IMG/VR virus record: IMGVR_UViG_3300043178_000179
Origin: a virus
Taxonomy: Duplodnaviria > Heunggongvirae > Uroviricota > Caudoviricetes
Length of the DNA stretch: 64,000 nucleotides
Reading direction: 5' to 3' (one strand)
The translations under genes and the position numbers were made by a program. How positions within the stretch are numbered: position 1 is the first letter of the stretch; every line of letters starts with the position of its first letter. The notes under the pieces are model-generated. The model was not told where the DNA came from. It did no database searches and was given only the letters and a program-made list of their open reading frames with translations. Positions 30,764 through 33,414 of the stretch are shown one piece after another.

Positions 30764-30805
30764 TATGCCTATCGGTTTGACTCAGGCGTCGCGTGTCTGC
30801 TGGGG

Positions 30806-31345
30806 TTGGGCGTGAGTAGCACCCGCTATGGCTGGAAGCCTGCGTTGGCTTGGTTTGCGGCACCGTGCGCGCTGGTTGCGGGGTTCACGGGTGCGTGGTG
30901 GTGGGAGCGAGCTGCGCTCATGGACTTGGGAATAAACGTGGACCAGTTCCCCCAGATCCCCAGCGACCCCGGGCTACCCGTCTTTGTAGTGATAGCTGCC
31001 AGTGTTGTGCTCTGCCTTGTCTTGGCCCTATCAGAGCCCCTCGTCAGGCTTCATGAGCGAGAAGCGGCAATCAAGGCGAAGGAGGAGAGCGACCCTGCCA
31101 CCGCTCAGCGGCTCCGTGCGGAAGCGGCCGAAGCTGCGGTCAGCGCCCGATACAACCAGGGGCTCATTGAGGGGGCGGTCAATGGTGAGCGCGCAGCCGC
31201 AGCAGCACGGGAACGCGAAGCCGCATTTCGGGCCGAACGAGATCGATGGGAAGCTCGCTATGCCGTAACGCTGGTGCAGCTTGCCGCCTTTGACTTGGAG
31301 ATCGTCGATGACCACATTCGGAGGAGAAATGCCCCGCAAGCCTGA
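30806..31345 (+). CDS. membrane protein, hypothetical
   Basis: Two TM segments. Sits at the start of the lower-GC islet. Confidence 0.45.
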   Translation: MGVSSTRYGWKPALAWFAAPCALVAGFTGAWWWERAALMDLGINVDQFPQIPSDPGLPVFVVIAASVVLCLVLALSEPLVRLHEREAAIKAKEESDPATAQRLRAEAAEAAVSARYNQGLIEGAVNGERAAAAAREREAAFRAERDRWEARYAVTLVQLAAFDLEIVDDHIRRRNAPQA

Positions 31346-31573
31346 TCCGACGGCCGCCCAAAGGCAAGGACCCAAGCACGGCCCGCAGTCCTTCCTCCAG
31401 TTCGTCCAGGCGTACCCAACCCGGAGGACCCGCGCAAGCTGGCCGACGGCTCCTCCTGGGTCCAGGCCGAGATGCTCCGCCGCGTCGTGATGCACCTGTG
31501 GAATCCCGAAACAGCGCCGCCGCCCGGCGCGTAACGAGCGCTCGCTCTACCCCAACCTGATCGGAGGTCGACG

Positions 31574-32470
31574 ATGTTCCGCTACCTGTTCTGTCTGTTG
31601 GTCCTTCTCTCCGGGTGTTCGACCGTGACGCCCGGGACCGTCGTGCTGGAGGTCTCGGTCTGCGGAGACACCGCGGGCCAGCACACGGTGCTGCACGGGG
31701 GCCGCTACTGGCCGATGTTCGCCATGTGCACCGACTACTACACGCTCCAGACCCGCGAGCAGCGGGCGAACTGGGCCAAGAACCCGACCGGCGAGGAAGC
31801 CGGCGCCGGCGACCGCTCCATCACCTTCGCCGGCAAGGACGGCCAGAAGGTGAACGTGGACGTGTCGGTCGGCTACATGCTCGGCGAGTCCGACGAGCAG
31901 ATCGTCCACATGGTCAAGACCTTCGGCTACGACGTGGACCAGGTGGTGGCGAACCGGGTCCGCGACTCGCTCCGCAACGACCTGAACCTGTGCGCCTCGA
32001 CCATGAGCGTCGAGGATATCTACGGGCTCAGGAAGGGAGAGCTGTTCGCCTGCGCCGAGCAGAAGGTGCGCGCGGAATACGAGCCCACCGGGCTCCGGAT
32101 CACCCGCGTGACGCTCAACTCCGAGGTGCGCCTGCCCGAGGAGGTCCAGAAGGCGATGGCCGCCAGCACCGCGGCGACCCAGCACGCCGAGCGGACCCGC
32201 CGCGAGGTCGAGAGCACCCGGGCCGAGGGCGAGAAGGTCGTGGCCCAGGCCGAGGCCCAGGCGAAGGCGCGGATCGCGGAGGCGACCGCGGAAGCCGAAG
32301 CCAACCGCATCCTCAGTGAGTCCATCACGCCTCAGCTCATCCGGCTGCGGGAGCTGGAGATCGAGAAGGCCAAGGCCGAGAAGTGGAACGGGGCGCTGCC
32401 GGTGGTGTCCGGCAGCGGCGGCTCGATGATCCTCGATGTCGGCGAGATCGCCGCGGGGAGTCTGCCGTGA
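31574..32470 (+). CDS. SPFH/band-7 (prohibitin/HflC-like) lipoprotein
   Basis: Lipobox 'LLSGC' followed by an SPFH-like core and a C-terminal coiled coil. Confidence 0.65.
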   Translation: MFRYLFCLLVLLSGCSTVTPGTVVLEVSVCGDTAGQHTVLHGGRYWPMFAMCTDYYTLQTREQRANWAKNPTGEEAGAGDRSITFAGKDGQKVNVDVSVGYMLGESDEQIVHMVKTFGYDVDQVVANRVRDSLRNDLNLCASTMSVEDIYGLRKGELFACAEQKVRAEYEPTGLRITRVTLNSEVRLPEEVQKAMAASTAATQHAERTRREVESTRAEGEKVVAQAEAQAKARIAEATAEAEANRILSESITPQLIRLRELEIEKAKAEKWNGALPVVSGSGGSMILDVGEIAAGSLP

Positions 32471-32703
32471 TCGCCACCTCCAGTGTCGCCCTGGTCGCGC
32501 TGCTCCTGCTCGGCTTCGTTCTGGGCCGGAGCCTGCTTTACCTTCCTGGCCGGCTGGTGGCCCGGCTCTCGGACTGGTGGCATCGCCGCCAGCTCCGCAA
32601 GCTGGAACTGCGCGAGCGTGAGGCCGAGATCAAGCGGAAGGAAGCGGAGGCCGAGAACGAGGCCGCCCGGATCTTGATCTTCGGCGAGCGGGAGAAGCGA
32701 TGA
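32467..32703 (+). CDS. small membrane protein coupled to the SPFH gene
   Basis: GTGA overlap. TM 'VALVALLLLGFVLG' plus a charged coil. Confidence 0.45.
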   Translation: MIATSSVALVALLLLGFVLGRSLLYLPGRLVARLSDWWHRRQLRKLELREREAEIKRKEAEAENEAARILIFGEREKR

Positions 32704-33191
32704 ATCTCCCCGCGCTCACGCTGCACGACCCCTGGGCGACGCTCTGCGTGGCCGGGGTGAAGACCATCGAGTCCCGTCGGAGTCCGGTGCTCTCCGGCTT
32801 CGCTGGCCCGCTGGTGATCCACCGGTCCCGAGCGCCGGAGGACGCGGACTACCTCTCCGCGATGGGGTGGCCCCCGAAGCCCGTGCCTCCCTGGGGAGCC
32901 GACCTGGACATGGCCGGCGCCGCGCTCGGGGTCGTCTTCGTGGCCACGACGGAGCCGCCCCGGGATCTCTCGCTCCTCCCCGCCGAGCAGAGCCATGGGC
33001 TCCGGGAACGCGCTCGCTATCACGACCTGGAGGGTCGGTGGCTGTCGCACTTGAGCCTCGCCGCGTGGTTCCCGCAGCCCCTGCCCGCCCGCGGCACGCA
33101 GGGGCGCTGGCGGATCGAGGTGCCGGACGAGTGGCTTCCGGACTGGGCGAAGCTGCCAGACGATTCCGCGCTCGTCCGGCTTCGCCCTTGA
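32700..33191 (+). CDS. ASCH-domain (PUA-like) protein
   Basis: 'MNLPALTLHDPWATLCVAGVKTIESR' is a typical ASCH N-terminus. ATGA-coupled. Confidence 0.6.
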   Translation: MNLPALTLHDPWATLCVAGVKTIESRRSPVLSGFAGPLVIHRSRAPEDADYLSAMGWPPKPVPPWGADLDMAGAALGVVFVATTEPPRDLSLLPAEQSHGLRERARYHDLEGRWLSHLSLAAWFPQPLPARGTQGRWRIEVPDEWLPDWAKLPDDSALVRLRP

Positions 33192-33249
33192 CCATGGCGA
33201 TCCAAGGGATTAGCTACTCGAAGCCGCCCACAACGGTCTGCCAACACGC

Positions 33250-33320
33250 GAGATTGCACAATAGGTAGTGCGATCGGCTCAACACCGATAGGTTCCAGGT
33301 TCAAGTCCTGGTCCCGCATT
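33250..33320 (+). pseudogene. degenerate tRNA-like element (CAA anticodon loop, intact D and T arms, defective acceptor stem)
   Basis: D-stem gcac/gtgc, anticodon hairpin atcgg-ctcaaca-ccgat, T-arm ccagg-ttcaagt-cctgg. Acceptor pairing is only 5 of 7. Confidence 0.3.
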
Positions 33321-33414
33321 CAAGTCAGGCACTCCTCCTCGGGCGGCACCCCTTCTCACTCGACCGGCCGGACTTCCACGAGTTCGAGGACGGTCACGGC
33401 GGCCTTCGGGATCC

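Follow-up and report, generated by a model that had tools for sequence, protein, structure and literature searches.

In HflK/HflC-FtsH, in QmcA-YbbJ (the SPFH-NfeD arrangement) and in prohibitins and erlins, an SPFH domain is followed by coiled-coil helices. HflK/C-type systems are anchored by an N-terminal transmembrane (TM) helix, and their SPFH domains sit in the periplasm. Phages encode SPFH lipoproteins of their own, collected in the protein family phrog_200. ASCH proteins have been connected with N4-acetylcytidine (ac4C): 19 of them, including EOLA1, strip ac4C from tRNA, an activity for which two residues of the GxKxxExR octapeptide, Lys and Glu, are essential (bioRxiv 10.64898/2026.02.27.708502), and EOLA1 deacetylates free ac4C in nucleotide salvage (PMC13484572). 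Here we analyze a 64,000-nucleotide stretch of the Caudoviricetes record IMGVR_UViG_3300043178_000179, hereafter the window, in which the interval 30764-33330 carries genes for a membrane protein (ORF179), an SPFH lipoprotein, a small membrane partner and an ASCH protein, followed by a tRNA gene.

Gene content and composition of the interval

We read this interval, with a probability of about 0.7, as a mosaic accessory, non-structural stretch of a large, high-GC, tRNA-rich phage-like genome, assembled from four units of independent ancestry and ending in a tRNA gene of its own. The reading draws on the identities, folds and conserved motifs of the gene products, the native codon usage of the SPFH, partner and ASCH genes, the independence of the modules and the completeness of the tRNA. 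Each unit has its own distribution, and the region is therefore best viewed as mosaic: the ORF179, SPFH-partner and ASCH modules never co-occur elsewhere. The features are listed below with the GC content at third codon positions (GC3) and an index resembling the codon adaptation index (CAI-like), whose reference is 19 large genes of the window that themselves range from 0.61 to 0.85.

30806-31345, plus strand: ORF179, a 179-aa membrane protein, two hydrophobic segments plus a charged tail of coiled-coil type; TTG start; GC3 0.66, CAI-like 0.395
31346-31573: spacer of 228 bp between ORF179 and the SPFH gene
31574-32470, plus strand: SPFH (Band 7/prohibitin-type) putative lipoprotein, 298 aa, with a signal peptide, an SPFH domain, a helical region of about 80 residues and a C-terminal KWNGALP; GC3 0.95, CAI-like 0.857
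32467-32703, plus strand: partner, 78 aa, with a single N-terminal TM helix and a basic coiled-coil tail; GTG start; GC3 0.86, CAI-like 0.726
32700-33191, plus strand: EOLA1-like ASCH protein, 163 aa, its ATG overlapping the partner stop codon; GC3 0.88, CAI-like 0.725
33247-33319, plus strand: tRNA, a 73-nt cloverleaf with anticodon CAA, called tRNA-Leu(CAA) by ARAGORN, 55 nt past the ASCH stop

The window has a mean GC content of 71% (0.711, standard deviation 0.026) and holds 43 tRNA genes and a transfer-messenger RNA (tmRNA) gene. A first-pass annotation, made from the DNA letters and a list of open reading frames (ORFs), had reported a drop in GC here, and rightly so: the 500-bp minimum of the entire window, 0.63, lies at 30901-31400, and only 0.4% of windows as long as the interval are lower in GC. 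The string it quoted spans 30761-30785, and the 'tag' in it is the TAG stop of the upstream ThiF/E1 gene. Its gene calls also hold, with four existing ORFs of which the last three are coupled by GTGA and ATGA overlaps, and so do the identities that it gave them, that of the ASCH protein by profile search and fold.

The description of the interval as a lower-GC islet survives only for ORF179 and the spacer behind it, which are the sole compositional outliers. Genes neighboring ORF179 have GC3 values of 0.81-0.95 and CAI-like values of 0.60-0.86, and the codon usage of the SPFH, partner and ASCH genes is native (GC3 0.86-0.95, CAI-like 0.73-0.86), and no gene of the region is better adapted than the SPFH gene. 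Its total GC is modest owing to codon positions 1 and 2, and so to the amino acids it encodes, while its GC3 is 0.95. The annotation had named agreement of GC and codon usage with the surrounding DNA as the compositional half of what would speak against an islet, and for these three genes the agreement with the rest of the genome is what we found. A dip in total GC can thus mislead in high-GC phage genomes; here it reflects one rare-codon gene and the amino-acid composition of its neighbor.

ORF179, the first unit, is the only piece of foreign-looking composition, and 27 of its 179 codons are rare. On sequence comparison it is a real gene: a HMMER search of 1.84 billion representative proteins returned a single non-self homologue (P0135; E 5e-19, 46% identity over 93 aa), and the alignment spans both hydrophobic segments and starts exactly at the TTG codon 30806. 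The JGI gene caller gives a shorter version of 141 aa from the ATG at 30920. The P0135 gene (531-1073 of L103, a 1.1-kb contig) has a GC3 of 0.56 beside a neighbor at 0.92. The low-GC3 codon bias therefore seems to travel with this family, of which two members are known; it may stem from recent transfer in both cases or from selection for rare codons.

Two other readings of ORF179 were rejected. It has an L-EREA-IK-KE motif in common with the 78-aa partner but is not its paralogue (BLASTP E=77; E=1.3 with the partner hidden Markov model, HMM), and read-through of the E1 TAG codon into ORF179 is unsupported, homology to P0135 beginning at TTG 30806 with none upstream. ORF179 does lie in the same frame as E1, with a suppressor-type tRNA nearby; frame sharing of this kind has a one in three chance of occurring by itself.

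In the spacer behind ORF179 (GC 0.65-0.67 in the 500-bp windows covering it), independent gene callers placed no gene, and scans for Rfam families, promoter-like sites and credible terminators gave nothing above chance. A GGAGG motif stands 8 nt ahead of the SPFH ATG. Minus-strand ORFs, for example 31547-32185 and 32332-32583, were discarded as shadow ORFs typical of high-GC DNA; neither of the two independent gene callers reports them.

The SPFH lipoprotein and its membrane partner

The SPFH protein scores 70.2 bits with Pfam Band_7 (PF01145; cut-off 23.6, E 2.9e-19) and reaches 7e-52 with the PHROG family phrog_200, annotated 'lipoprotein'. Its lipobox, MFRYLFCLLVLLSG-C15 (L-S-G-C15), is read directly from the sequence and fits the pattern [LVI][ASTVI][GAS]C. 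In an alignment of 31 homologues the lipobox Cys is kept in at least 90%, four further Cys are conserved, and the C-terminal W-x-G-x-L-P (W271/G273/L275/P276; KWxGxLP) is invariant. The protein is probably exported and lipid-anchored, and an extracytoplasmic location is favored because the conserved Cys suggest disulfides.

An AlphaFold2 (AF2) model of the monomer, built with the 31 homologues, reaches a pLDDT of 89.5 and places the SPFH domain at residues 22-181, followed by helices at 189-250 (62 residues) and 253-270. Foldseek aligns this model over nearly its full length with subunits of prohibitin, erlin, HflK/C, stomatin and QmcA (E 1e-13 to 3e-10), and a sequence comparison with the PDB brings up prohibitin, QmcA and HflK (E about 3e-5). 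Fold and domain order are thus those of the HflK/HflC-FtsH, QmcA-YbbJ and prohibitin/erlin systems, and a two-gene operon of an SPFH gene and a small membrane protein gene is a further trait common to the locus and the HflK/HflC and QmcA-YbbJ types. The window protein differs in its anchor, a lipobox instead of an N-terminal TM helix, and it scores only 25.6 bits with the HflK equivalog TIGR01933 (cut-off 159.4), outside that group. By analogy, its long helices are predicted to build a ring or cage. We found no evidence of a link between the window module and FtsH.

The closest named phage proteins are the phrog_200 lipoproteins of Pseudomonas phage Ostro (WXB47644.1), Myxococcus phage Mx1 (WNM70264.1) and Ochrobactrum phage ORM_20. 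Like the window protein they have a signal peptide, a lipobox Cys followed by S/K-V-P-A-G or S-T-V-T-P-G, an SPFH domain, a long helix and a C-terminal KW(D/N)GxLP, and they are accompanied by a small membrane protein. Distant SPFH lipoproteins of this kind are found in 157 GenBank phage records, mostly of phages with Gram-negative hosts, and keep the lipobox and KWDGKLP. The window protein is only 29-33% identical to those of Ostro, Mx1 and ORM_20, and its own clade (45-63% identity) is known only from metagenomes. The accompanying protein differs as well, being a downstream single-pass TM/coiled-coil protein in the window clade and an upstream protein with two TM segments in Ostro and Mx1.

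The partner gene overlaps the SPFH stop codon (GTGA, 32467-32470), and its own stop overlaps the ASCH start (ATGA, 32700-32703). In all nine other SPFH loci with downstream DNA, the next gene is a small ORF built like the window partner, with an uncharged N terminus. The contigs that carry these SPFH homologues (45-63% identity) are phage-like, reach 158 kb in length and range in GC from 0.32 to 0.72. An HMM built from eight of these nine partners finds the window 78-aa ORF at E 5.5e-9, top of the 676 six-frame ORFs of the window. SPFH is all that the window shares with the 10-kb flanks of the other SPFH loci. The SPFH gene and its partner thus make up a conserved module of two genes, complete in itself, which travels among large phages that have nothing else in common. 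Phage SPFH lipoproteins are widespread in the form of phrog_200, and the constant presence of a homologous single-pass partner in this clade makes of the two genes a defined unit, a candidate for envelope stabilization, protease control or exclusion.

Lys and Arg are absent ahead of the TM helix in nine of nine partners (the window protein and eight others), and two to four of them fall within the 15 residues behind it; the window partner has none before and three behind. By the positive-inside rule, this charge distribution predicts an N-out/C-in topology with a cytoplasmic tail. The partner has no Pfam match, and in particular no NfeD match at E<=10 and no match to an OB-fold, which places the pair outside the SPFH-NfeD operons.

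We envisage that the SPFH lipoprotein would form rings or cages that enclose a patch of membrane from its extracytoplasmic side. The partner, with an external N terminus and a basic coiled coil reaching into the cytoplasm, would be a transmembrane anchor or client of this cage. The module might remodel or stabilize the host envelope during infection, perhaps by governing what reaches a membrane protease, for instance FtsH, or some other complex of the inner membrane.

A lipoprotein gene next to a gene for a single-pass membrane protein with a coiled coil also resembles the two-component spanins, such as Rz/Rz1 of lambda. Here, however, the lipoprotein is an SPFH protein of 283 aa and not a small proline-rich o-spanin, the gene order is reversed, the coiled coil is predicted from its charges to be cytoplasmic where that of spanins is periplasmic, and the endolysin gene is 8 kb away. 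Spanin and holin readings of the membrane proteins were accordingly ruled out on size, predicted topology and endolysin distance. The likely lysis cassette is at 40828-41855 on the minus strand, with an endolysin carrying PG_binding_1 and CHAP domains (41025-41855) and then an overlapping 71-aa gene on the same strand.

The best-surviving alternative, which we still consider unlikely, is that the SPFH-partner pair serves superinfection exclusion or defense, with an envelope cage that blocks DNA injection by other phages or triggers abortive infection. Many exclusion proteins are phage lipoproteins or small membrane proteins, T5 Llp and P22 SieA among them. The pair behaves as a mobile cassette in unrelated phage backgrounds, and in the temperate Pseudomonas phage Ostro the SPFH homologue sits between repressor and integrase, a typical moron position. 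The first-pass annotation had likewise suggested a role in defense or abortive infection; this found no backing in PADLOC-DB, where none of the SPFH, partner, ORF179 and ASCH proteins has a match at E<=0.01. The literature matches listed for SPFH with anti-phage and defense system are a phage-characterization study and a megaplasmid survey. The SPFH gene is also the best codon-adapted in the region, and in large phages it keeps company with metabolic accessory genes such as those for NAD salvage, as would suit a gene that serves its own phage during infection.

Several observations on other SPFH loci stand apart from this question. The NAD-salvage genes found around the SPFH lipoprotein gene in several large phages (L016, which is Myxococcus phage Mx1, L007 and L010/L011) are NAMPT, NMNAT and NUDIX genes. 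Other SPFH-carrying contigs are tRNA-rich too: L007 (GC 0.32) has a tRNA with the anticodon CTA, of amber-suppressor type, at 17987-18067, and L005 has a tmRNA at 8087-8468 whose tag, ANNSDHFSDARELLAA, is similar to that of the window.

The ASCH protein and the tRNA gene

The window ASCH protein has twelve metagenomic homologues (46-56% identity), and a profile of 13 homologues matches EOLA1/CXorf40 over the full length at E 4e-18 and the ASCH domain of TRIP4 at 1e-4; five of the 13 match Pfam ASCH weakly. The AF2 model of the window protein has a pLDDT of 86.6, and its top Foldseek match is EOLA1 (5y7d; E 4e-11, TM-score 0.72), followed by TTHA0113, the TRIP4 ASCH domain and ZmASCH, as is expected of an ASCH beta-barrel. 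By full-length profile and fold the protein therefore resembles the GKER-type proteins EOLA1/CXorf40, TthASCH and TRIP4 ASCH. The GxKxxExR octapeptide reads G19-V-K21-T-I-E24-S-R26, with G19 conserved and K21, E24 and R26 invariant among the 13 homologues; these last three align with residues shown to matter in EOLA1. The differences from EOLA1 are an identity of only about 20%, its being phage-encoded and the lack of a helix-turn-helix or other nucleic-acid-binding extension. Because of the EOLA1-like fold, the intact K/E/R and the reported activities of ASCH proteins and EOLA1, the window protein is likely an ac4C deacetylase/amidohydrolase, which would act on ac4C as a free nucleoside for salvage or in tRNA. 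Its phage family, phrog_3193, annotated as being of 'unknown function', gains a tie to the EOLA1-type ac4C deacetylases, whose catalytic residues it keeps, and with it a testable activity. Phages may in this way touch the ac4C epitranscriptome or the salvage pathway. A tblastn search gave no match to this protein in GenBank phages.

A more specific proposal, to which we give a rather low probability, is that the EOLA1-type protein is a phage ac4C eraser acting on tRNA, either that of the host (for example the wobble C34 of elongator tRNA-Met) or the element's own. If it were true, the eraser would join 43 tRNAs, a tmRNA and a suppressor-type tRNA that reads UAA in a set of tools for taking over translation. 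In the same spirit, the many rare codons of ORF179 could tie the timing of its expression to the availability of tRNAs made by the phage.

Very unlikely, in our view, is the wider idea that ORF179, the SPFH protein, its partner and the ASCH protein link envelope and RNA in a single system, such as a complex tethered to the membrane that recruits the ASCH protein, whose substrate would be the neighboring tRNA. In its favor, translational coupling joins the SPFH, partner and ASCH genes, the tRNA follows 55 nt beyond, the predicted cytoplasmic tail of the partner could dock a cytoplasmic protein, and distant phage SPFH genes also have small membrane proteins alongside. Against this, none of nine other SPFH-partner loci has an ASCH homologue within 10 kb, and the ASCH loci on other contigs (four loci, L012-L015, on three distinct contigs) have neither an SPFH homologue nor a tRNA within 10 kb. 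On those contigs (GC 0.67-0.69) the ASCH homologues lie in early/replication regions near genes for DNA polymerase III alpha, uracil-DNA glycosylase (UDG), a C5 methylase and RecE-like proteins. A start/stop overlap is found at the ASCH start there too and is the norm between unrelated neighbors. The ATGA overlap of partner and ASCH gene is thus most simply tight packing, since ASCH homologues elsewhere come without SPFH.

The fourth unit is a complete, somewhat odd tRNA(CAA). The first-pass annotation had seen a degenerate tRNA-like fragment at this place. 'Somewhat degenerate' is fair, given two acceptor mismatches and C37; a fragment it is not. The Rfam model RF00005 scores 50.9 bits against a gathering threshold of 29 and covers model positions 1-71 of 71, so that the full-length 73-nt tRNA is not truncated, and it ranks 27th among the 34 Rfam tRNA matches of the window, the others scoring 33.9-70.9 bits. 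Its oddities are a 5-nt variable loop, U73, C37 and the acceptor mismatches C1xA72 and A5xC68. Bacterial class II tRNA-Leu has a long variable arm and an A73 discriminator; the short variable loop and U73 place this tRNA outside that class, and a canonical 84-nt class II tRNA-Leu(CAA) is present at 42114-42197. The first four acceptor positions, C1xA72, G2:C71, C3:G70 and G4:C69, are those of the E. coli initiator tRNA, and the codon matching the anticodon CAA is UUG, which can serve as an alternative start. Neither the D stem (C11:G24) nor the anticodon stem is initiator-like, and the likeness could have arisen by chance as the tRNA decayed.

In tRNA-associated integration sites (attP/attB scars), too, a run of accessory genes ends in a tRNA sequence, and the first-pass annotation had taken the tRNA for the likely scar of an integration. 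Unlike such scars, it is complete, and 42 more tRNAs and a tmRNA are present. At up to three mismatches its 3' end is unique within the 64-kb window, IMG/VR holds no exact copy of it, the region has no meaningful flanking direct repeats, and no family match to an integrase or transposase was found in or beside the interval. The isolated tRNA simply belongs to the large tRNA complement. The label of moron or islet fits loosely insofar as these are moron-like accessory cassettes that recur on unrelated phage-like contigs; a common foreign origin they do not have. That the whole of 30764-33330 is a single horizontally acquired islet, integrated beside the tRNA and since partly ameliorated, is accordingly most improbable: the low rank in GC, the tRNA at the end and the accessory nature of genes that all recur in other phage-like contigs would agree with it, and the codon usage of the SPFH gene, the separate occurrence of the modules elsewhere and the intact tRNA contradict it.

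The remaining tRNA genes were examined alongside. Dense arrays at 42114-50080 on the plus strand hold 41 tRNAs and the tmRNA (46506-46877; tag ANNNNHFEARAAA). Some members of the arrays are odd: the 'Met-CAT' tRNA at 49678-49763 measures 86 nt and has a long variable arm, and a tRNA at 42478-42563, left unnamed by ARAGORN, has an unusual anticodon loop. A second isolated tRNA at 34277-34350 (plus strand) has the anticodon UUA, of ochre-suppressor type, and would read UAA; it scores 55.6 bits with Rfam and has a perfect 7-bp acceptor stem and U73. Among the 56 confident ORFs of the window, 45 end in TGA, 10 in TAG and one in TAA. Recoding of TAA by the UUA-anticodon tRNA was rejected, with TAA serving as one of 56 confident stops and no in-frame read-through candidate.

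Weight of the mosaic reading and the surrounding genome

Several points weigh against the mosaic reading or against the functions proposed within it. No capsid, portal or terminase gene was recognized among the window ORFs scanned; we treat the window as a large phage-like element on the basis of its endolysins, methylases, DUF5131, tRNA arrays and the contexts of its relatives. No close relative of the whole element was found, which leaves no marker for the age of the arrangement, old or recent. The translational coupling of partner and ASCH gene could mean a functional link that we have discounted. The ASCH protein as a single sequence scores 12.7 bits with Pfam PF04266, below the cut-off of 21.2. 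Cage assembly and lipidation are extrapolated from homologues and the partner topology from the positive-inside rule, and a partner with a cytoplasmic tail would meet a lipid-anchored periplasmic SPFH protein only at the membrane. No function has been assigned to phage SPFH lipoproteins by experiment or in the literature, and the reason for SPFH genes in phages 'remains unclear' in the words of a 2026 paper (PMC13239085). The products of the interval are further members of established families in an ordinary mosaic accessory region. The interest that remains is modest and concerns the SPFH-partner module, the phage clade of EOLA1-like ASCH proteins and the rare-codon membrane gene whose bias recurs in its sole homologue.

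The search for close relatives of the element covered three collections. Megablast of 30000-34500 against 50,697 phage records (INPHARED) found none, and neither did scans of IMG/VR with SPFH, ASCH, E1 and orf150. A scan of JGI metagenomes with E1 returned one trio of about 50% identity, described below, and otherwise generic ThiF proteins only. Pieces identical to the window are found on metagenome contigs of up to 95 kb.

Directly upstream of the interval, at 29497-30763 on the plus strand, a trio of genes with overlapping starts encodes a JAB/MPN peptidase-like protein, a 100-aa protein with a ubiquitin-like tail (FGGLA) and a 192-aa ThiF/E1 adenylyltransferase. The E1 and JAB proteins match PADLOC-DB v2 models of defense systems (E1-E2 and JAB), though they are carried by a phage-like element. 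The JAB-Ubl-E1 trio recurs on one groundwater contig (L018, 8970-10570; 47-52% identity, GC 0.60), where E1 is followed by unrelated genes and not by ORF179, SPFH, partner or ASCH genes. Downstream of the interval are two orphan genes, the second isolated tRNA, and NUDIX and DnaJ genes. Other genes of the window encode endolysin-type proteins, cytosine methylases, DUF5131 and PAPS-reductase-like proteins. Farther out, a 989-bp direct repeat of 94% identity occurs at 6126-7107 and 28153-29137, 22 kb apart, and the ORFs 6286-7494 and 28313-29503 are paralogues, 89% identical over 311 aa, that match no known family.

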